Shown piece after piece: positions 8,524 to 32,000 of a stretch of 32,000 nt of DNA. The notes beneath the pieces are model-generated. The model was not told the origin of the DNA. It was given only the letters and a program-made list of their open reading frames with translations, and did not search any database. This DNA is from Methylomarinovum caldicuralii (GTDB taxonomy: Bacteria > Pseudomonadota > Gammaproteobacteria > Methylococcales > Methylothermaceae): assembly GCF_033126985.1 (NCBI RefSeq), contig NZ_AP024714.1, positions 1,472,990-1,504,989 on the forward strand, read 5' to 3'. Made by a program: the position numbers and the translations under genes. Numbering within the stretch: position 1 is the first letter of the stretch; every line of letters begins with the position of its first letter.

Positions 8524-9450
8524 ATGAAAGCCCTGAAACTGCAAAACCTTCGCAAGGTCTACGACAACGGCTTCGAGGCCCTCAAGGGCATCGATCTGGA
8601 GGTGGAGGCCGGTGACTTTTTCGCGCTCCTCGGCCCCAACGGCGCCGGCAAGTCCACCACCATCGGCATCGTCACCTCGCTGGTGACCAAGACAGCGGGA
8701 AAGGTGGAAATCTGCGGCCACGATCTCGACCGCGAACCGGATGCGGCCAAGCGCTGTCTCGGGCTGGTGCCCCAGGAAATTAACTTCAACCAGTTCGAGA
8801 AGGTCGGCCGGATCGTCCTCAATCAGGCCGGTTATTACGGCGTGCCGCGGCGGCAGGCGCGCCGTCGCATGGAGGAAGTGCTCAAGAAGCTCGATCTCTG
8901 GGACCGGCGCGACGAGGTGTCGCGGCGGCTGTCCGGCGGGATGAAACGGCGGCTGATGATCGCCCGGGCTTTGGTGCACTGTCCCCGGGTGCTGATCCTC
9001 GACGAGCCGACCGCCGGGGTGGACATCGAAATCCGCTATTCCATGTGGGAATTTCTGCGCCGACTCAACCAGGAAGGCACCACCATCATTCTGACCACCC
9101 ATTATCTCGAGGAGGCCGAGCGGCTGTGCCGCCACGTGGCCATCATTGATCACGGCCGCATCGTCGAGTCCACGTCCATGAAGCGGCTGCTGGCCCAGCT
9201 GGAATATCACCGCTATCTGCTGGAACTGCGTAATCCGCCGCAGGCCATCCCGGAGATTCCGGGTTACCGGATCGAGGCGATGGAGGCCAATGTCTGGGCG
9301 GTGGAGGTGCCGCGTTCCCAGGGGCTGAACCCGCTGTTCGCCGCCCTGAACCGGTTGGGTCTGGAGGTGATCGACATCCGTCCCACCAGCAACCGCCTGG
9401 AACAGCTGTTTTTCCAGCGCGTCCGCCAAAGGGCAGGGGAGGCGGCCTGA
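8524..9450 (+). CDS. yadG: ABC transporter ATP-binding protein, YadG type (ABC-2 exporter)
   Basis: Walker A GPNGAGKST, signature LSGGMKRR, Walker B LILDEPT. Collinear similarity to E. coli YadG along the whole length as recalled (LLGPNGAGKSTTIGI, NQAGYYGV, TTIILTTHYLEEAE). Confidence 0.9.
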   Translation: MKALKLQNLRKVYDNGFEALKGIDLEVEAGDFFALLGPNGAGKSTTIGIVTSLVTKTAGKVEICGHDLDREPDAAKRCLGLVPQEINFNQFEKVGRIVLNQAGYYGVPRRQARRRMEEVLKKLDLWDRRDEVSRRLSGGMKRRLMIARALVHCPRVLILDEPTAGVDIEIRYSMWEFLRRLNQEGTTIILTTHYLEEAERLCRHVAIIDHGRIVESTSMKRLLAQLEYHRYLLELRNPPQAIPEIPGYRIEAMEANVWAVEVPRSQGLNPLFAALNRLGLEVIDIRPTSNRLEQLFFQRVRQRAGEAA

Positions 9451-10217
9451 TGAGGCAGCGCTGGATCGCCTACCGCACCCTGGCAGGAAGGGAAATCCAC
9501 CGCTTCCTGCGCATCTGGCCCCAGACCCTGCTGCCGCCCCTGGTGACCACCTCGCTGTATTTCCTGATCTTCGGGGCCCTAATGGGGCCGCGCATCGGGC
9601 CGATGGCCGGGGTGGCCTACATCGACTACATCGTCCCGGGCATCGTGCTGATGGCGGTGATCAATCATTCCTACGCCAACGTGGTGTCGTCGTTCTTCTC
9701 CGCCAAGTTCCAGCGCCACATCGAGGAAATGCTGGTGGCGCCGATGCCCAGCTGGCTGATCCTGCTCGGCTACGTGACCGGGGGCATGGCGCGGGGGCTG
9801 ACCATCGGCCTGCTGGTGGCGGGGATCGCCGCCCTGTTCACCGACCTGCAGGTGCGTCATTGGGAAATCGCCGTGGCGATGGCCCTGCTGACTTCGCTGC
9901 TGTTTTCCCTGGGCGGCCTGATCAACGCGGTCTTCGCCCGCAGCTTCGACGACATCTCCATCATTCCCAACTTCGTACTGACGCCGCTGGTCTATCTGGG
10001 CGGGGTGTTCTATTCGGTGACCCTGCTGCCGCCGCCCTGGGGCCGGCTGTCGGAATTCAACCCGATCCTCTATATGATCGACGCCTTCCGCTACGGTTTC
10101 CTGGGGGTGGCGGACGTGCCGGTGAGGCTGGCCTTCGTCATCGTGGCGGGGTTGATCGGCGTGCTGGGCCTGACCGCCTGGTGGCTGCTGCACCGCGGCG
10201 TCGGCATCAAGCACTAA
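9450..10217 (+). CDS. yadH: ABC-2 type transporter permease, YadH type
   Basis: TGATG overlap with yadG. Six hydrophobic segments. Strong similarity to E. coli YadH as recalled (EIHRF.RIW.QTL.PP, FFSAKFQR.IEE.LVAP, VLTPL.YLGGVFYS..LLPP). Confidence 0.9.
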   Translation: MRQRWIAYRTLAGREIHRFLRIWPQTLLPPLVTTSLYFLIFGALMGPRIGPMAGVAYIDYIVPGIVLMAVINHSYANVVSSFFSAKFQRHIEEMLVAPMPSWLILLGYVTGGMARGLTIGLLVAGIAALFTDLQVRHWEIAVAMALLTSLLFSLGGLINAVFARSFDDISIIPNFVLTPLVYLGGVFYSVTLLPPPWGRLSEFNPILYMIDAFRYGFLGVADVPVRLAFVIVAGLIGVLGLTAWWLLHRGVGIKH

Positions 10218-10921
10218 CCGACCAGCCGGGCCAGGGCGTCGCGGTCGAGAATCCGGACCCGTTTGCCGTCGAGCTCGATCCAGCCCTCCCGTTCGAACTG
10301 CTTGAGGGTGCGGCTGACCGTGGCCAGGGCCAGATCCAGGTGGTTTCCCAGTTCCTGGCGGGTCAGGCCGATGGAGAACTCCTCCCCGGAAAAACCGCGG
10401 AAGGCATAACGGCGGGACAGGTCGAGTAGAAAGGCGGCCAGGCGCTCCTCGGCCGGTTTCTTGATGAAGACGGTCTGGTCGCGCTGGCTGGCGAGGGCGT
10501 CGCTGGCGTGGCGCAACATTTCCCCGAGCATTGTCGGGATGCGGAAACAGATGCGGGAGATTTCCTTGGCCGGCAGCTCGCAATAGCTGACCGTGTCCAG
10601 CGCCTGGGCGGAACAGCGGTAGCGGTTGTCCGCCAGGGCATCGAAGCCGACCACTTCCCCGGGAAGCAGCACCTGGAGGATGTGTTCCTCGCCTTGGTCG
10701 TCCTGATAGATCAGCTTGGCGGTGCCGGATTTGATGGCGATCAGGCCGTGGAAAGGATCGGCGGCGCGGAACAGGAATTCTCCCTTCCGCAATGCCTTGC
10801 GGCGCTCGACCACATCTTCAAGCTGACTGACTTCCTCGCGGGTCAGCCCCCGGGGGAAGCATACGGTTCTGAAACCGCAATTGTGACAAGTGACTTGCAG
10901 TTTTTTGTGCAAAGTCGTCAT
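10214..10921 (-). CDS. fnr: FNR-type [4Fe-4S] oxygen-sensing Crp/Fnr family transcription regulator
   Basis: N-terminal C-x2-C-x5-C (C12, C15, C21) plus C114, with the same 93-residue spacing as E. coli FNR C29 to C122. cNMP-like beta-roll. C-terminal HTH LTRQELGNHLDLALATVSRTL. Ala replaces the conserved Glu of the E--SR recognition motif. Confidence 0.85.
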   Translation of the reverse strand: MTTLHKKLQVTCHNCGFRTVCFPRGLTREEVSQLEDVVERRKALRKGEFLFRAADPFHGLIAIKSGTAKLIYQDDQGEEHILQVLLPGEVVGFDALADNRYRCSAQALDTVSYCELPAKEISRICFRIPTMLGEMLRHASDALASQRDQTVFIKKPAEERLAAFLLDLSRRYAFRGFSGEEFSIGLTRQELGNHLDLALATVSRTLKQFEREGWIELDGKRVRILDRDALARLVG

Positions 10922-11051
10922 GTATCCGAGCCAGGAACGTTTCCGGGTAATGATACACGACCTGAGCGCTCAGGAAATGCTTGAAAATCGTTCGTTTCTG
11001 TCACAATATCAATCTTATACCGTTATTTTTACTATCAACTCTAAACACAAA

Positions 11052-11894
11052 ATGAACTTAAACCAAGCAGAAGAGAACCTCATTCACAGGTTTCAAGCGC
11101 TGCGGGAAGCGATCCAGGATTTCGTCGTCCAGCTGAATCAGGAAAGCCGCAGGGCCTGGGTCTTCGATCTAGCGCATCGCGAATACCACGATGCGGAGGC
11201 CAGAAGCCAATTGATCCAGATCCTGACGCGGCTGGAATATCCGGACAACCGCGATGGCCGGGAAACCGATCCCTGTCCCGGCATCATCGGGGCAGGGCCC
11301 AGGACGCTGGCGCTGGCCGGCGCCCTCAATCAGGCCCGGGATGCCTTCAAGCAGGCGGTGCTCGCGATCAACAGTCATGACAGGGAACGGTCCCGGCGCC
11401 TGATGGCCGCCCAGGGCTTTGCCCGCCTGCATTTCAAACAGCTGTACCGTCATCAGCCGATTCTGCTGCGCAAACCCTGTTCCATCCGCTTTACCTGGGG
11501 AGCGACACGCTCGATCAAGCGTATCAGCCGCCAGGAGGCCTACCGCAGGCTGACGGCGCTGGCCGGCGACGATCCATCGCCCGGTTACCTGAGACAGCTG
11601 GAGCTTCTGGCCCAGCATCCCAAGGATGAACCCATCGCCATCGTGCAGGACCTAAAACCGCATATCAAGGCCAACGTCTGCTGGATTCAGGGAAGCGGCC
11701 AGGATCGTCAGGTCATCCGCAAAATGATCAGCGCGCCGTTGGCGATTCTGATCCCGCTGGACCCGGGTGAGGACTTGCCGCAGCATAGCGCCGCCTATCC
11801 GGAGGCGCGCAAACCGAGAAAGCCGCGCGCCGATACCAGGATCGAGCGGGAGCTGTTTTTACCGTCGATCCGGGGTCACCGTTACTGCCGGTAA
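11052..11894 (+). CDS. tus: Tus-family DNA replication terminus site-binding protein homologue
   Basis: 280 aa from MNLNQ. Hand alignment to E. coli Tus (recalled) is collinear end to end. [22 protein letters not shown] aligns with RLNTTFRQMEQELAIFAAHLEQ. PGIIG aligns with [29 protein letters not shown] aligns with [53 protein letters not shown] aligns with [36 protein letters not shown] aligns with LIIPRLHLYV. The track start at 10890 would overlap fnr and adds non-homologous residues. No SD is seen before 11052. Confidence 0.7.
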   Translation: [280 protein letters not shown]

Positions 11895-11901
11895 TACTCT
11901 A

Positions 11902-11929
11902 ACTTTACATAATATACATTATGCGAACA
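11902..11929 (-). other. dif: dif, the XerC/XerD chromosome dimer resolution site
   Basis: The minus strand reads TGTTCGCATAA-TGTATA-TTATGTAAAGT against E. coli dif GGTGCGCATAA-TGTATA-TTATGTTAAAT, 24/28 identical. The central hexamer is 6/6 and each arm is 9/11. It is intergenic and is the only such site in the window. KOPS polarity converges on it. Confidence 0.85.
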
Positions 11930-12016
11930 TATAGACAGAAGACCTTGGACTCCGTCCGCCAAGCCCCCATAATTGCCCTACGGAAGCCCGATCAATAACA
12001 AAGGAGCAAGCCATCC

Positions 12017-12721
12017 ATGACCCAGTCACTGCAGGCGCTGAAAACCCACAGGGACACCGAGGACCGCCAGGCTTTCAACGAAGTCCTGCGGCAGTTTCTG
12101 CCACAGCTCAGGCCCTATGTCGCCGCCCGCCTCCGGTACGCCGAACACGCGGGCCTGATTCCCCCGCGAATGTACTTTCCCAGTGACATCGTGGACGAGA
12201 TCTATCTGGAAGTGTTCGAGCATTTCAGCGATGCCGATCTCGATCCCAAAAAACTCAAGATCAGGCTGTTCAAGCTGGCCGACGCCAAACTGGAAAAAAT
12301 CCTCAAGGAAGAAGCCCGGTGGCAGGAACGCAAGGTTCCCATCGAGGACATCGTCCGGGAGGAACTGAAATCGCTGGAGGAAATCTTCTACCCGGAGGAA
12401 ATGCTCGACGACATCGAGTACCGCCAGGACGAATACCGCCCCAAACTTCTGTTGCTGGAAGAAGGCTTCGAGGGCGACCTGCTGGACTTCCTCGAGCTGG
12501 ACCGCAGCCTGCGCCAAGAGGCCAGGAACCGCCAATTGCTCGCCCGGGCTTACGAGAGTCTGCCGCCGTTGAGCCGGATCATCCTGGAGCTGAAAGTCAA
12601 CGGCAACCTGACGGTGGAAGAGATCGCCGATGTCCGGGAGATGGATGTGGAGGAAGTCGAGGCGGGTCTGGAGGCGGTGAAAAGGCGTTTCCGCCAGGCT
12701 TTGGGGCAGGAAGCCGCTTAG
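12017..12721 (+). CDS. Sigma-70 family (ECF-like) RNA polymerase sigma factor with a long acidic sigma2-sigma4 linker
   Basis: AAGGAG about 10 nt upstream of the ATG. Region-2-like segment AFNEVLRQFLPQLRPYVAARL...DIVDEIYLEVFEHF. Region-4-like HTH LPPLSRIILELKVNGNLTVEEIADVREMDVEEVEAGLEAVKRRFRQAL. An acidic linker of about 65 aa lies between them. No anti-sigma candidate is adjacent. Confidence 0.65.
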   Translation: MTQSLQALKTHRDTEDRQAFNEVLRQFLPQLRPYVAARLRYAEHAGLIPPRMYFPSDIVDEIYLEVFEHFSDADLDPKKLKIRLFKLADAKLEKILKEEARWQERKVPIEDIVREELKSLEEIFYPEEMLDDIEYRQDEYRPKLLLLEEGFEGDLLDFLELDRSLRQEARNRQLLARAYESLPPLSRIILELKVNGNLTVEEIADVREMDVEEVEAGLEAVKRRFRQALGQEAA

Positions 12722-15302: not shown

Positions 15303-15371
15303 CTTCAACTCCCGGCTTGAATATTAGGTATCGATTATAAATGTATTGACTATGGACAACACGAACGAAGT

Positions 15372-15385
15372 TTGATTACAATCAA
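15372..15385. promoter_or_regulatory. Perfect FNR/ANR box TTGAT-TACA-ATCAA
   Basis: Exact match to the palindromic consensus TTGAT-N4-ATCAA, in the AT-rich divergent intergenic region. It is 70 nt from the gnd ATG and 94 nt from the ATG of the 55-codon ORF. By my estimate about 0.03 such perfect sites are expected by chance in 32 kb. Confidence 0.7.
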
Positions 15386-15478
15386 CTCCGCCGAAATTCG
15401 GCGTTTCAGATTGTAACCGATCTGGAAGTCCCGGAAACGGGAGATAACAACGAACCAACCATATATGAGGTAGGAGAA

Positions 15479-15646
15479 ATGGCAGAGCAAAATCAGGAAC
15501 AGGAAAAAGACAATTTCTGGCTGATTATCGGCCTGATCATCGCCGCCGCGGTCGTGGGCGTGATCCTGCTCAAGAAGGCGGAAACATCTTCCGTTCCCTA
15601 TCAGGCCTGGGAAGAAGTCCGCAAGGAAGAAATGGGTAAAAAATAA
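15479..15646 (+). CDS. Small single-pass membrane protein (55 aa), not in the ORF track
   Basis: Sequence MAEQNQEQEKDNFWLIIGLIIAAAVVGVILLKKAETSSVPYQAWEEVRKEEMGKK. Strong SD (GAGGTAGGAGAA, with AGGAG 4 nt before the ATG). One clear TM helix with charged flanks. Stop TAA at 15644-15646, followed 30 nt later by a perfect terminator hairpin. I recall no homologue. Confidence 0.6.
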   Translation: MAEQNQEQEKDNFWLIIGLIIAAAVVGVILLKKAETSSVPYQAWEEVRKEEMGKK

Positions 15647-15673
15647 CAACTTCCTCTTTTCCCTTTCCTTGAG

Positions 15674-15700
15674 AAAGCCCCGCGATCGCGGGGCTTTTTT
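15674..15700. terminator. Bidirectional rho-independent terminator (small ORF and ychF)
   Basis: AAA-GCCCCGCGA/TCGCGGGGC-TTTTTT. The 18-nt palindrome at 15677-15694 is perfect, with an A-run and a T-run on either side. It overlaps the ychF stop codon (15699-15701). Confidence 0.8.
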
Positions 15701-16790
15701 ACACGTTGAAGCGGAAGTGGACCACGTCGCCTTCCTGCATGACGTAATCCTTGCCCTCCAGGCGCCATTTGCCGGCCTCCTTGGCCCCCTGCTCTCCCCC
15801 GTGGCGGACGAAATCCCCGTAGGCGATGACCTCGGCGCGAATGAAACCCTTCTCGAAATCGCTGTGGATGACGCCGGCCGCCTGGGGCGCGGTAGCCCCC
15901 TGCTTGACGGTCCAGGCGCGGACTTCCTTTTCTCCGGCGGTGAAGAAGGTCTGCAGCCCCAGCAGCCGGTAAACCGCCCGCACCACCCGGTCGAGACCGG
16001 CTTCCGCCAATCCCAGCTCCTCCAGGAAGGCTTCCCGGTCCGCCTCGTCCAGCTGGGAGATTTCCGCCTCGATCGCCGCGCACACCGGCACCACCTGGGC
16101 ACCTTCGGCGGCGGCGTGGGCCCGCACCTGTTCCAGCAGCGGATTGGCATCGAAGCCGGATTCGTTCACGTTGGCGACATACAGCACCGGCTTGGCGGTC
16201 AAGAGATGCAGGCCACGCAGCAGGGCGCGCTCGTCTTCGCCCAGATCCAGGCTGCGCACCGGTTTGCCGGCGTCCAGATGGGCGGCCACACTTTCCAGCA
16301 GCGCCTTTTCCGCCCGCGCGGCCTTGTCGCCGGATTTGGCCGCCCGCGTGACCCGCTGTAATGCCCTGTCCACCGTCTCCATGTCTGCGAGCACCAGTTC
16401 GGTGTTGATGATCTCGATGTCGCGCACCGGATCGACCGAGCCGGCCACGTGGGTGACGTCGCCGTCCTCGAAGCAGCGGACCACGTGGGCGATAGCGTCG
16501 GTTTCACGGATGTGGCCGAGGAACTGGTTACCCAGCCCCTCCCCCTTGGAAGCCCCGGCCACCAGCCCCGCGATGTCGACGAACTCCACCGTGGTCGGCA
16601 GGGTACGTTGGGGTTGGACGATCTCAGCCAGGGTCTTGAGCCTGGGATCGGGGACCGGCACCACCCCCACATTGGGATCGATGGTGCAGAAGGGATAGTT
16701 TTCCGCGGCGATTTCCGCCCGCGTCAGCGCGTTGAACAGGGTGGACTTGCCGACGTTGGGAAGCCCGACGATACCGCAATGTAATGCCAT
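15699..16790 (-). CDS. ychF: Redox-regulated ribosome-binding ATPase YchF
   Basis: N-terminal [18 protein letters not shown]. Coiled-coil insert. C-terminal TGS-like domain ([32 protein letters not shown]). Confidence 0.95.
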
Positions 16791-20298: not shown

Positions 20299-21797
20299 AC
20301 CGAATTGTGCAGGTCGAGGTTGTTGGTGTTGGATTCTTCCGCTTGCGGGCCGCGGCGGCAGAAACTGAGGCGCTCCAGGTATTCCGGGGTGATGTCCCCG
20401 GTAACGTATTCGCCGCTGAAGCAACTGGTTTCGAAACGCTCGATGGCCGGGTTGCAGCGCCGCACCGCCTCCACCAGATCGTCGAGATCCTGATAGATCA
20501 GCCAGTCGGCCCCGAGGAAATGCTGGATTTCTTCCTCACTGCAGCCGTGGGCGATCAGCTCCGAGGTGGCCGGCATGTCGATGCCGTAGACATAAGGGTA
20601 ACGGACCGGCGGGGAGGCGGAGGCAAAATAGACCTTGCTGGCGCCGGCGTCGCGGGCCAGTTGGATGATCTGTTTGGAGGTGGTGCCGCGGACGATGGAA
20701 TCGTCCACCAGCAGCACGTTCCTGCCCTTGAATTCCACGTCGATGGGATTGAGCTTGCGGCGCACCGATTTCTGGCGCAGCTGCTGTCCGGGCATGATGA
20801 AAGTGCGGCCGATATAGCGGTTCTTGATGAACCCTTCACGGTACTTCACCCCCAGGCGGTTGGCCAGCTCCAGCGCTGCGGTGCGGCTGGTGTCCGGGAT
20901 GGGAATGACCACGTCGATGTCATGATCCGGACGCAGGCGCAGAATCTTCTCCGCCAGTTTCTCCCCCATGCGCAGCCGGGCCTGATAGACCGAGATGCTG
21001 TCGATGACCGAATCGGGACGGGCGAAATAGACGAACTCGAAGATGCAGGGCGCGTGCAGGGTGCGCTCAGCACACTGGCGGCTGTGAAGACGGCCGTTCT
21101 TTTCGATGAAGACCGCCTCCCCGGGGGCGATGTCCCGCAGCCGTTTGAAACCGAGTACATCGAGAGCGACGCTTTCGGAAGCGATGATGTATTCCGGCCC
21201 CTGGGGCGAATCGCGGCGGCCGATCACGGCCGGTCGGATTCCGTAAGGATCCCGGAATCCCAGCACCCCGAAACCGGTGATCATCGCGGTCACCGCATAA
21301 GCCCCCCGGCAGCGGCGATGGACTTCGGCCACGGCATCGAAAACGTCGCTGACGTCGAGACGCAGTTTTCCCAGACGCTGCAGTTCATGGGCGAAGACAT
21401 TGAGAAGGATTTCGGAATCCGAATCGGTGTTGATGTGGCGCTGGTCCTGCAGGAACAGCTCCTGTTTCAGGAGCTCGGCGTTGGTCAGATTGCCGTTGTG
21501 GCCCAGGGCGATGCCATAGGGGGAATTGACGTAGAAGGGTTGGGCTTCGGCTGAACTGGTACAACCGGCGGTGGGATAGCGGACGTGGCCGATCCCCATC
21601 GTGCCGCGCAGGTGTTGCATGTGCTCCGGCTGAAACACGTCGCGCACCAATCCCTTGTCCTTGCGCAGATAGAAACGGCCACCCTCGTAGGTGACGATGC
21701 CGGCGGCGTCCTGACCGCGGTGCTGCAGCATCGTCAGGGCTTCGTAGAGTTCCTGATTGACCGGCTGATGGGAAACGATGCCTACGATTCCACACAT
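20295..21797 (-). CDS. purF: Amidophosphoribosyltransferase
   Basis: Ntn-type N-terminus [12 protein letters not shown]-binding loop [13 protein letters not shown]. Start set at ATG 21797, so that Cys is residue 2. The track start at 21968 is an upstream extension into cvpA. Confidence 0.95.
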
Positions 21798-22392: not shown

Positions 22393-23400
22393 ATGGAAAC
22401 CCTGTCCACGGCACTCCCGGCGCGCTTCGTCGAGCGGCTGCAGGCCATCATCCCGCCCGCCCGGCTGGCGGAAGTGCTCGCCAGTTTCGGTCGGCCCAAG
22501 ATCCCTGTCCTGCGGGTGAACACCTTGCGATCCTCCGTCCTGGAAACCTTCACCGAATTGCAGACTCAGGGGTTTCCGCTCGATCCCCTTCCCCAACTGG
22601 AATACGCCGCCAGCCTGCCGCCGGAATGGAAACGCCCGCTGACGGAGACGTCGGCGTTTGCGGAGGGACGGATCTACCTTCAGAACCCCTCCAGCATGCT
22701 CGCGGTGGAGATGCTGGTGCCCCAGCCCGGCGAGGAGGTGCTCGATCTGTGCGCTGCCCCCGGCGGCAAGACTTCCCTGCTGGCGATGAAAATGGGAAAC
22801 CGGGGCCGGATCGCGGCAGTGGAGCCGGTCAAGGACCGTTTCTACCGGCTTAAAGCCAATCTGGCCCGCCTGGGCGTGACCGTTGCCCGCGGTTACCGCA
22901 TGGACGGCCGCGCCGTCGGCCGCAAGGTGCCCGAACGTTTTGACCGCGTGCTGGTGGACGCCCCCTGCTCGTCCGAGTCCCGCTTTCGCAGCGAAGATCC
23001 CCAAAGCCACGCCCACTGGCATGAGCGCAAGATCGCCGAATGTTCCCGCAAGCAGAAACGGTTGTTGCTGTCGGCCTTTCAGGCATTGAAGCCGGGCGGC
23101 CGCCTGCTCTACTGCACCTGTGCCTTCGCCCCCGAAGAGAACGAAATGGTGGTGGACGCCCTGTTGCGGCGGCATCCGGAGGCGGAGATCGTCCCCTTGC
23201 AACTTCCCGGGGTGGCGCAGCAGCCGGGGCTGACCCGGTGGCAGGGAAAAACCCTGGCTGCATCCCTTGAGGGCGCCCTCAGGATTCTTCCGGACCAGGT
23301 TTACGACGGCTTTTTTCTGTGTCTGGTGACGAAGGGCCGTGGCGTTGGTGCCAAAGCCGGTCCAGTTCGGAAAGGCGCTGCAGTTTGGCCGCGATCTTGA
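22393..23400 (+). CDS. RsmB/RsmF/NOP-family SAM-dependent RNA (cytosine-C5) methyltransferase
   Basis: SAM-binding motif [10 protein letters not shown]. Catalytic motifs DAPCS and TCA(F)xPEENE. The conserved part ends near GFFLCLVTK, and the frame then runs 21 more codons to TGA 23398-23400, overlapping the rarA 3' end. Confidence 0.8.
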
Positions 23401-24658
23401 TTTCCAGGCCGCGCTCGACCGGCTGGTAATAGCGACGCGGTTCCATCTCCTCGGGAAAATAGTTTTCCCCGGCGGCATACCCTTCCGGTTCGTCATGGGC
23501 ATAGCGGTAGCGGCGGCCGTAGCCCAGCTCCCGCATGAGCCGGGTCGGGGCGTTGCGCAGATGCACCGGCACCTCCAGGCTGCCGGTGGCGGCGGCATCC
23601 CGTTGCGCCGCCTGAAAGGCGCGATAGACGGCATTGCTTTTCGGTGCGCAGGCCAGATAGACCGCCGCCTGGGCCAGGGCCAGCTCCCCTTCCGGCGACC
23701 CCAGCCGCTCCTGGGCGTCCCAGGCATCGAGCGCCAGGCGCAATGCCCGCGGGTCGGCGTTGCCGATGTCCTCGCTGGCGATACGCACCAGGCGGCGGGC
23801 GATGTAGAGCGGATCGCAACCACCATCCAGCATGCGGCAGAGCCAGTACAGGGCTGCGTCGGGATCGCTGCCGCGGATGGTCTTGTGCAGGGCGGAGATC
23901 TGATCGTAGAAGGCGTCCCCCTGGCGGTCGAAACGGCGCGGGCTGCCGCCGGCCAGAACATCCCGGGCGACCGCTTCGGAGATGTGGACGACGCCGCCTG
24001 CCTCCTCGCCCAGATCGACGAGCACTTCCAGCAGATTCAACAGGCGGCGGGCATCGCCGTCGGCGGCCTGGATCAGCCAGGGGCGCACCGCGGCCGGCAG
24101 CCTGATCTCCCGGCCGCCGAAACCGCACGGATCGGTCAGGGCGCGGTCGATGACCTGTTCCAGGTCGGTTTCCCCGAGCGGTTTGAGTACATAGACCCTG
24201 GCCCGGGACAACAGGGCGTTGTTGAGGGCGAAGGAGGGATTTTCCGTGGTCGCCCCGATGAAGCAGATCAGCCCGGTTTCGATATGGGGAAGAAAGGCGT
24301 CCTGCTGGGCTTTGTTGAAACGGTGCACCTCGTCGACGAAGAGGATGGTTCGGCGCCCCTGTTCCCGGATCGCCTCTGCCTGTTGGATGGCTTGGCGGAT
24401 GTTTTGGATATTGGATAAAACAGCAGATAACGGTATAAATTCGGCGTCCGCCGTCGCCGCCACCATCCGCGCCAGCGTCGTCTTGCCGGTCCCCGGCGGC
24501 CCCCAGAGAATCATCGAGTGCAGATGTCCGGCCCGAACCGCCTCATAGAGAGGCTTGCCCGGCGCCAGCAGGTGGTGCTGGCCGAAGAACTCCTCCAGGC
24601 GCTGGGGCCGCAGGCGGTCGGCCAGCGGCCGGGAATCGGCGCTGTTTTCCAACTTCAC
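23279..24658 (-). CDS. rarA: Replication-associated recombination protein A (AAA+ ATPase RarA/MgsA)
   Basis: Walker [10 protein letters not shown], Walker [11 protein letters not shown], and MgsA C-terminal domain ([25 protein letters not shown]). The GTG start at 24658 overlaps the lolA stop (GTGA). Confidence 0.95.
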
Positions 24659-25272
24659 GTGCCTTCGAAGACATCCACGCCGGGCGGCGGAGAGAAGCGG
24701 AACAGCTCAGGATCGAGGCGGGGATTGATCTCCAGCCGATGGAAGCGGATCCGGGTCAGCTGCCCGAAATTGTCCGCCAGTTCCATCGCCTGCAAAACGT
24801 CCCGTTGCAGTTCAACCCGCAAACGGCGGAAGACGTCGTTCTTGGATTTGGGACGCAGCTCCACCCAGGCCCGCCCGCCTTCGCTTCCCTGCCCTGCCAC
24901 CCGGAAACGCTCCTGCAGGCGGACCTGACCGCTGAGCAGCAGCGCCGGCGCCGATCCCAGCGCCTCGTCGAGCGGGCGCACGGTCACCTGTTCCAGATCA
25001 GGATCGTAGAACCAGACCTTGCTGCCGTCGGCGATCACCCATTGCCGGTACGGCTTGCGGTATTCCCAGCGGAACCTGCCCGGCCGCGCCAGATAGAAGC
25101 GCCCTTCGCTGCGCTGGCTGACGTTTCCGTGTTCGTCGATGACTTCCTGCTCGAAATCGGCAGCCAGGGTCTTGACCCGGGAAAGGAAGCCATCGAGCGC
25201 GTCCACGGGCGCGGCGGTGGCTGCGGCTGCCCACCACAACAGGAAAATCACTGGAAAGAAAGACAATTGCAT
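24655..25272 (-). CDS. lolA: Outer-membrane lipoprotein carrier protein LolA
   Basis: Signal peptide [22 protein letters not shown]. LolA-like length (205 aa) and conserved ftsK-lolA-rarA synteny. ATG 25272 lies 4 nt after the ftsK stop. The track start at 25494 lies inside ftsK. Confidence 0.85.
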
Positions 25273-25276
25273 GCGC

Positions 25277-28848
<3,572 letters not shown>

Positions 28849-31592: not shown

Positions 31593-32000
31593 TCAGGAAG
31601 CCGGGGCGGCGGCGACCGGCTCGGCCTTGGCCGCTTCGGCCGCTGCCGGCTTCTCCGTTTCCTTCCCCGCCGGCGTCTCCCCGGAGGGGTTGGTCATCTG
31701 ATCGTTGAGGCGCTGGATCAGGATGTCGGCCTGATTGACGATCTTTTCCAGCTCCTCGCCGACCTTGTCGCTCCAGCCCTTGATCTTGCCGGTGGCGAAC
31801 AGGCGCCAGTTGGCGCACTGGTTGAAGGCACGCACCAGATTGAAGCGCAATCCCACCTGTTTTTGCCGGCGCGCCAGACGGCGGCGGTAAATCGCCTTGA
31901 AAATGCTGGAGAACAGCCAATGAAAGATCCCCAGGATCATCAGGCCGGCGGTGAAGGCAATGGCATCGGCCAAGGGATTGAACCAGAAACCGGTGGTGAT
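31593..32000 (-). CDS. Hypothetical membrane protein, 5' end beyond the window
   Basis: The frame is open to the window edge; the track start at 31973 is an internal TTG. It has a hydrophobic segment (FWFNPLADAIAFTAGLMILGIFHWLF), then a basic stretch, a helical segment and an Ala/Pro/Glu-rich tail. I recognise no family. Confidence 0.4.
   Translation of the reverse strand: MTTGFWFNPLADAIAFTAGLMILGIFHWLFSSIFKAIYRRRLARRQKQVGLRFNLVRAFNQCANWRLFATGKIKGWSDKVGEELEKIVNQADILIQRLNDQMTNPSGETPAGKETEKPAAAEAAKAEPVAAAPAS

Follow-up and report, generated by a model that had tools for sequence, protein, structure and literature searches.

The closest described counterparts of the system considered here are the Type I narrow, 'ancestral' Tus-Ter traps of non-Enterobacteriaceae Enterobacterales such as Edwardsiella tarda and Dickeya paradisiaca, where one tus gene is directly preceded by a site on the strand that encodes it (Toft et al. 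2021, PMC8707476). Tus homologues are reported in Enterobacterales, Pseudoalteromonas and Aeromonadales, according to the passages of PMC10331603 that cite Galli et al. 2019, and reviews hold that most bacteria may lack fork traps. Bacillus subtilis carries a functional analogue, RTP-Ter, which also places opposed polar sites at the terminus. Here, we analyzed a stretch of 32,000 nt from the forward strand of the Methylomarinovum caldicuralii chromosome (Methylothermaceae, Methylococcales; NZ_AP024714.1, positions 1,472,990-1,504,989; the whole stretch is called the window), in which a 28-mer at 11902-11929 had been proposed as a dif site for the XerC and XerD recombinases beside a tus-like gene. 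M. caldicuralii is a thermophilic marine methanotroph from the deep sea, with one complete chromosome of 2,694,844 bp, 2,614 protein genes and no plasmid, and its genome paper makes no mention of dif, Xer or Tus (PMC10950024). We found that the 28-mer is very probably the resident chromosomal XerCD dif site at the terminus of M. caldicuralii, and that a conserved asymmetric motif stands in opposed orientation on both sides of it, once upstream of the tus-like gene and once inside rarA.

The locus resembles the Type I trap in having one tus gene with a candidate site directly before it, and very few sites, opposed around dif, with a narrow interval between them (10.4-13.4 kb here, less than the 18 kb quoted for D. 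paradisiaca in PMC8707476, the narrowest chromosomal example found cited). It differs from the Type I trap in its host, since Methylothermaceae lie outside the taxa reported to have Tus, in the embedding of one candidate site in rarA, and in a site sequence unrelated to the GTTGTAAC core. A search of the accessible literature returned no paper linking Tus with Methylococcales. Some E. coli ter sites also lie within open reading frames (ORFs), as tabulated in PMC10331603, whereas the embedding seen here runs against strong codon bias, is found family-wide and has outlived the host gene in one lineage. Further, tus lies here inside the interval and points at dif, while the E. coli gene lies outside and points away. 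In comparison with B. subtilis the likeness is one of function, as RTP is an unrelated dimeric winged-helix protein, whereas a Tus fold is predicted here.

The probable dif site and the replication terminus

The plus strand at 11902-11929 reads ACTTTACATAATATACATTATGCGAACA, that is, ACTTTACATAA-TATACA-TTATGCGAACA, and its reverse complement, TGTTCGCATAA-TGTATA-TTATGTAAAGT, consists of two 11-bp imperfectly inverted arms round a 6-bp centre. We compared this minus-strand sequence directly with the E. coli dif reference GGTGCGCATAATGTATATTATGTTAAAT, located in NC_000913.3 (the MG1655 chromosome), and found 4 of 28 positions to differ, with the same 28-bp layout of 11 + 6 + 11 and an identical TGTATA hexamer, which reproduces the 24/28 match of the original prediction. 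The XerD-type arm occupies 11902-11912, the central hexamer 11913-11918 and the XerC-type arm 11919-11929, so that the XerD-binding arm faces the tus-like gene, as had been claimed. The departures of the site from E. coli dif include A at position 23, G at 27 and, on the outer XerC arm, TGTT. The T-to-A change previously placed inside the XerD arm is indeed present, with the correction that it falls at dif position 23, a position named as variable in a survey of 161 proteobacterial dif sites (PMC2731167). According to that survey, conservation is stronger in the XerD arm and highest at the inner arm positions; variation affects positions 23-24 and the outer ends, and is greatest at position 13 of the centre. 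Compared with the family consensus, the window site has one mismatch in all across the inner 9 nt of both arms.

A chance resemblance was assessed in two ways. The 17-nt core GCATAATGTATATTATG was found exactly at 11908-11924 on the minus strand and gave 0 matches in 100 shuffles of the window, and the chance of a 28-mer with at most 4 mismatches from dif is about 2e-6 by our own estimate for 64 kb of uniform sequence, and lower at 64% GC (guanine plus cytosine). No second dif-like sequence was found in the 32-kb window, even with relaxed arm-only matching, and the site is intergenic, starting 7 nt past the stop of the tus-like gene (11894) and lying 88 nt before an ORF at 12017-12721; both results agree with the earlier description of a sole, intergenic site. 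The window dif thus abuts the 3′-end of a tus homologue, whereas in E. coli about 93 kb separate dif (1.59 Mb) from tus (1.68 Mb). Given that the 28-mer is an imperfect palindrome right after a stop codon, and that a weak promoter-like match occurs at 11946-11973, we also considered that it might belong to the tus transcript or to the downstream gene as a terminator hairpin, an operator or a small RNA, and resemble dif by chance. However, the fold energy of the region equals that of shuffles (z = -0.09), and no terminator-like site, promoter enrichment or Rfam match was found there. Across relatives the arms are fixed and the centre is free, without compensatory changes, which is the opposite of a hairpin pattern, and the chance of a 24/28 match is negligible. 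With the terminator, small RNA and promoter readings all negative, this explanation is effectively refuted and we consider it extremely unlikely.

We then compared the site with those of related loci (given L-numbers), which were gathered via homologues of the Tus-like protein and of RarA; counts refer to distinct loci, namely 18 Methylothermaceae loci for dif and 16 with tus-upstream sequence for the motif described below. A dif-like 28-mer was present 3′ of the tus-like gene, on the opposite strand and in constant orientation, in 17/18 loci, and was single within each related locus as well as in the window. The distance from the tus stop to dif was 6-50 nt in 13/17 loci and 124-353 nt or 2.8-3.7 kb in the other four, with the widest gaps, 2.8-3.7 kb, in L009 and L014. 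Variation within the family is limited to positions 1-2, 4, 7, 13-16, 23 and 27, the arms being otherwise constant, and the central hexamer appears as TGTATA, TATATA, TCTTTA or TACACA. As in other gammaproteobacterial dif sites, the XerC arm has diverged more than the XerD arm. The Methylothermaceae consensus ACTTCGCATAATGTATATTATGTTAAAT (ACTTCGCATAA-TGTATA-TTATGTTAAAT) is close to the dif of Methylococcus capsulatus, TATGCGCATAATGTATATTATGTTAAAT (PMC2731167). The variable positions agree with those of the survey, indicating that the window site evolves as dif sites do.

This conservation also bears on the possibility that the 28-mer is a Xer site of, or left by, an integrative mobile element exploiting Xer (IMEX), or a plasmid-type site, with the resident dif elsewhere. 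Such an origin would suit the lower GC content of the 10.5-12.5 kb part of the window (0.58 vs 0.65), the variable gene content on the XerC-arm side, where the window and L001 have a sigma-like ORF that L004 lacks, and the 2.8-3.7 kb that separate dif from tus in L009 and L014. However, the position and orientation of dif are fixed beside a conserved chromosomal gene across the whole family, and no second degenerate dif borders the variable segments, including those of the loci with larger tus-dif gaps, so the IMEX reading was rejected. Moreover, the centre has 6 bp, as in chromosomal dif (PMC2731167), strand polarity switches at the very site, and the source genome has no plasmid. Overall, we regard a mobile or plasmid origin as very unlikely.

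For the resident dif, the position of the terminus was judged from local strand polarity in the window and in related loci. The octamer GGGNAGGG occurs in the window three times on the plus strand and once on the minus strand left of dif (+3/-1) and only on the minus strand right of it (+0/-6), and the counts over 13 loci were +33/-4 on the left and +2/-31 on the right (Fisher p = 6e-13). An unbiased change-point of G-rich 8-mers fell 0-2 kb from dif in 10/10 loci, and in L009, where the tus-dif gap is 2.8 kb, it tracked dif and not tus. The sign of the GC skew flipped across dif in 3/3 loci examined. Further, the tus locus tag, P1469 of 2,614 genes, puts the locus about 56% round the single circular chromosome, which would be roughly across from the origin provided that gene numbering begins near dnaA. 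The ftsK gene (25277-27763, minus strand) lies about 13 kb from dif and encodes the Pfam domains FtsK_4TM, FtsK_alpha, FtsK_SpoIIIE and FtsK_gamma (93.6 bits), the gamma domain being the one that reads the FtsK-orienting polar sequences (KOPS) and activates XerD. The earlier suggestion that dif marks the replication terminus is therefore supported by the conservation of dif together with the local polarity switch in related loci.

Several observations weigh against this assignment. Neither xerC nor xerD was found in the 32-kb window, L003 has no dif in the 2.1 kb past tus, up to the contig end, and the synteny of the left flank is conserved among the loci, which are therefore not fully independent samples. 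Permuted G-rich octamers also converge on dif (54-93%), with GGGNAGGG, at 91%, second of 56; what the signal shows is thus an asymmetry of leading-strand oligomers in general, which does not establish GGGNAGGG as the KOPS word. The raw cumulative GC skew of the window has its maximum at 24,755, away from dif. This peak is largely a gene-strand effect and does not contradict the dif assignment: the coding strands of the window are C-rich at third codon positions (their GC skew at these positions, GC3 skew, is about -0.04 where genes lie on the leading strand and about -0.2 where they lie on the lagging strand), and short-window raw GC skew therefore mainly reports gene strand, with a sign opposite to the usual assumption.

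For the M. caldicuralii site we infer Xer binding, FtsK dependence and a single chromosomal copy. XerC and XerD would bind the two 11-bp arms, and FtsK, steered by G-rich polar sequences converging on dif, would activate strand exchange over the 6-bp centre. This exchange would resolve chromosome dimers at division, and dif would form the junction of the two replichores.

The Tus-like protein

The tus-like gene, MIT9_P1469, lies at 11052-11894 on the plus strand and encodes 280 aa, the probable true start being the ATG at 11052 and not the GTG at 10890; the protein from 11052 is 100% identical to the M. caldicuralii hypothetical protein MIT9_P1469. It matched Pfam PF05472 (Tus) with 24.8 bits at a gathering cut-off of 22. 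Against the NCBIfam equivalog model NF002810 it scored 27.9 bits at a cut-off of 323 and so is not an equivalog, and a phmmer search of PDB sequences gave no match. An AlphaFold model was built from the family alignment (predicted local distance difference test, pLDDT, 81.4; predicted template modelling score, pTM, 0.73) and compared with the PDB by Foldseek. The four top matches were all E. coli Tus-Ter complexes (E 7e-14 to 8e-13; template modelling score, TM, 0.51-0.55), and the next match had an E of 0.2, leaving E. coli Tus as the only significant structural matches. Sequence identity to E. coli Tus was 17-18% in the structure alignment, and hhalign aligned the family with E. coli Tus over 221 columns (E 3e-5, probability 73%). 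The Pfam match, the fold comparison and the profile-profile alignment bear out the earlier naming of this gene as tus-like, and indicate that the upstream gene is a true, highly divergent Tus homologue with a modelled Tus fold.

A profile search returned 741 cluster representatives of the Tus family at E <= 1e-3, among them Neptunomonas proteins that databases already label as terminus-binding. As judged from these sequence matches, the Tus family is larger than reviews suggest.

An oriented 19-bp motif on both sides of dif

Alignment of the tus-upstream regions of relatives revealed a non-palindromic motif, WAT-TTATRCCGTTA-WNWTT, which carries information over about 19 bp and whose core is TTATRCCGTTA. 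It was found upstream of tus in 16/16 loci. The tus-proximal copy of the window, a candidate Ter, lies at 11012-11030 on the plus strand, and its core, TTATACCGTTA at 11015-11025, ends 26 nt before the tus ATG. E. coli TerB is placed alike: it too lies on the coding strand of tus, and 11 nt separate its end from the ATG. The second candidate Ter is an inverted copy at 24423-24441 on the minus strand (core 24428-24438), within the coding sequence of rarA and 12.5 kb past dif. The motif thus occurs exactly twice in the window, as an inverted pair that encloses dif at distances of 0.9 and 12.5 kb, and the chance of a second copy in the window was about 0.006 as estimated from base composition.

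The same arrangement extends to the relatives. There were 17 tus-side copies, 16 of them proximal and one in L008, 9.8 kb farther out between convergent genes, and eight rarA-side copies, including a second, intergenic one 9.9 kb farther out in Methylohalobius crimeensis (L026). In the roughly 0.45 Mb examined, every one of the 25 copies is oriented toward dif, with none facing away. The innermost copies are 10.4-11.1 kb apart in the other loci and 13.4 kb apart in the window, where a lineage-specific RsmB/F gene widens the interval. The extra intergenic copies (L008 152-162 and L026 345-355, both on the plus strand) are oriented as the inner copy of their own side, like back-up Ter sites; a window counterpart of the outer rarA-side copy would lie just past base 32000. 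In L004, the start assigned to tus by the gene caller is an ATG inside the motif itself (9999-10001, TTTATGCCG), so that annotated tus starts in genomes with the G variant are probably too far upstream. A generic repeat search of 9-15 kb gave GC-rich noise only.

One further copy comes from an unrelated contig, L033, where a full 19-bp sequence (ATATTTATACCGTTAACTTT, 8540-8570, minus strand) lies intergenically, 1.4 kb upstream of a Tus-like gene that is 35% identical, and adjoins a gene with a TerB domain (tellurite-resistance family). No dif was found within 10 kb of this copy. Its nearness to a Tus of 35% identity speaks for an association of the motif with this Tus subfamily, and the copy indicates that the layout is not universal. 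The motif is probably the binding site of the Tus-like protein.

The rarA/mgsA gene (replication-associated recombination protein A; 23279-24658, minus strand; Pfam MgsA_C, AAA_assoc_2 and AAA) reads the motif as GAA TTT ATA CCG TTA TCT GCT GTT TTA, in a genome in which GC content at third codon positions (GC3) is near 0.8. In this genome ATA makes up 1.5% of Ile codons, TTA 1.0% of Leu, TCT 2.5% of Ser, GCT 3.9% of Ala and GTT 4.6% of Val, and the four core codons, given the peptide, have a probability of about 1e-5. The motif was found within rarA in 6 genomes (the window, L011, L026, L027, L028 and L030, the last with one mismatch). Among the 20 closest RarA homologues the peptide is F-I-P-L-S in 18 and F-I-S-L-S in 2, and in outgroup methanotrophs it is F-L-P-L-S, F-S-P-I-S and similar. 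The outgroup Methylococcus sp. EFPC2 encodes a near-identical peptide, F-L-P-L-S, by the GC-rich codons TTC CTG CCC CTG TCG, and has neither the motif in rarA nor a dif within 10 kb of it; there, lolA-rarA maps to 0.23 Mb on a chromosome of 4.44 Mb, without ftsK next to it. Past the motif, the window rarA continues with the AT-rich codons TCC AAT ATC (S-N-I), which are Methylothermaceae-specific, the outgroups having S-G-V.

In L004, all that is left of rarA between lolA and cvpA is a frameshifted remnant of about 200 nt (20546-20816), in which the motif is intact. The remnant (...GPPGTGKTT... / ...ADPEFMPLS...) stops about 10 codons past the motif, the rest of rarA having been deleted. The motif has thus outlived rarA in this lineage, indicating that the site is kept as DNA, independently of rarA.

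The genes around these sites are in part conserved. The ftsK-lolA-rarA cluster stands 13-16 kb from dif in all Methylothermaceae loci, with lolA (24655-25494 in the window) between rarA and ftsK. The conserved synteny on the left includes the gene for a Crp/Fnr-family regulator (10214-10921, minus strand), divergent from tus. On the XerC-arm side of dif, the sigma-70 or extracytoplasmic function (ECF)-like ORF at 12017-12721 (plus strand) has a counterpart in L001 (11307-12008) and none in L004, so that variable DNA, present in some relatives only, directly abuts dif on this side. This ORF had been called a sigma-factor gene; some likeness to sigma-70 region 4 and ECF factors stands, but both scores are under their cut-offs (Sigma70_r4_2, 21 bits vs 25.7; TIGR02937, 23 vs 42.9), and the name is weakly supported. 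The gene for an RsmB/F-type 16S rRNA methyltransferase (22393-23400, plus strand) is inserted between cvpA and rarA, on the strand opposite to its neighbours, and is not found here in other loci. Finally, a low-GC patch (0.58) at 15309-15698, between the 6-phosphogluconate dehydrogenase gene and ychF, includes part of an ORF of 266 aa (15350-16150, minus strand) with no Pfam match.

A putative compact fork trap

Opposed groups of like-oriented asymmetric sites flanking dif are the defining architecture of Tus-Ter systems, and this is what suggests a fork trap here. The module runs from the first motif copy through the divergent tus, dif and about 10 kb of housekeeping genes to the inverted copy in rarA, followed by lolA and ftsK. 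It is best explained as a compact termination zone of the Tus-Ter type, in a bacterial order from which none has been described. The two copies would most likely act as Ter sites bracketing dif, and forks would enter the 13.4-kb interval and terminate there, with binding, arrest and polarity all presumed. We give about an even chance to this module being a functional and so far undescribed compact Tus-Ter fork trap, 10-13 kb wide, whose Ter sequence is new.

In the window, the switch of the strand-corrected GC3 skew was placed at the rarA motif copy, at 24.0-24.5 kb (weighted residual sum of squares 75.9, compared with 97.3 at dif and 112 for the null), and in L030 it again fell near the rarA copy, while in L026, L027 and L028 it fell at the tus/dif end. 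The switch was within the motif-bounded interval in all 5 genomes, as expected were termination confined there, which is compatible with a trap but not decisive. The raw skew maximum at 24,755 was dropped as support for arrest at the rarA site, as gene strand dominates it and, after strand correction, three other genomes favour the tus/dif end.

A number of observations tell against a fork trap. The GC3 signal is noisy and confounded by gene identity. The motif is unrelated to the E. coli Ter core GTTGTAAC and has no evident GC(6) equivalent, and a search of the window with the core ATGTTGTAACTAA, at <=3 mismatches, gave only chance-level matches far from the locus. In the alignment to E. coli Tus, F140 corresponds to an invariant F128 and L150 to L138, while H144 is replaced by an invariant Y132 and G149 by I137. 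These four E. coli residues are presumably those of the cytosine-lock pocket, which Mulcair and colleagues are said to have described in 2006. No co-variation of any Tus residue with the A/G position of the motif was found. C(6) is strictly conserved in Ter (PMC4499146).

Polarity raises a further difficulty. The apparent likeness of TTATGCCGTTA to the E. coli Ter sequence TATGTTGTAA (TATG..GT) was dropped, since TerB scored no better than shuffled TerB on the motif matrix in either orientation. With no significant similarity between the motif and Ter, blocking polarity is not transferable by alignment. In E. coli, the forks blocked at TerB are those that travel the way tus is transcribed. An E. 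coli-like polarity relative to tus would make both copies face outward and stop incoming forks, which seems biologically implausible; a polarity consistent with a trap needs the site to be inverted relative to tus in comparison with E. coli.

The same observations could be explained if dif is real and TTATRCCGTTA is no fork-arrest site, being instead the operator of a Tus-like regulator or a site for some other factor that organises the terminus or is directed at dif. KOPS-like guide sequences, too, are oriented toward dif, both motif copies in the window read along local transcription, and in L033 the motif stands near tus without dif; the absence of similarity to E. coli Ter and the changed residues of the putative lock pocket point the same way. 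However, the motif resembles Ter in its asymmetry and its length (about 19 bp) and is placed where TerB sits relative to tus, and the upstream protein has a modelled Tus fold. Opposed copies bracket dif, with extra copies of the same orientation farther out in L008 and L026, as in E. coli Ter clusters. Moreover, the motif is held in rarA against codon bias and outlives that gene, which would be senseless for a rarA operator. We therefore consider a role other than fork arrest possible, though rather unlikely.

Taken alone, the dif site is a routine yet useful annotation, which fixes the replichore junction of M. caldicuralii, and the window can be re-read as a terminus region in which ftsK, rarA and tus are clustered. 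The site embedded in rarA is a clean example of a constraint at the DNA level overriding codon usage. If the family-wide Ter-tus-dif-Ter module of these thermophilic and halophilic methanotrophs is real, it would extend the Tus system to a new order, and would represent a natural trap reduced to two to four sites that enclose dif. Such a module would also provide an orthologous Tus-Ter pair with another recognition sequence, with which the generality of the cytosine 'mousetrap' lock could be tested, and possibly an orthogonal polar barrier tool. Were the E. coli polarity kept instead, these methanotrophs would have an outward-facing termination-zone architecture without precedent.

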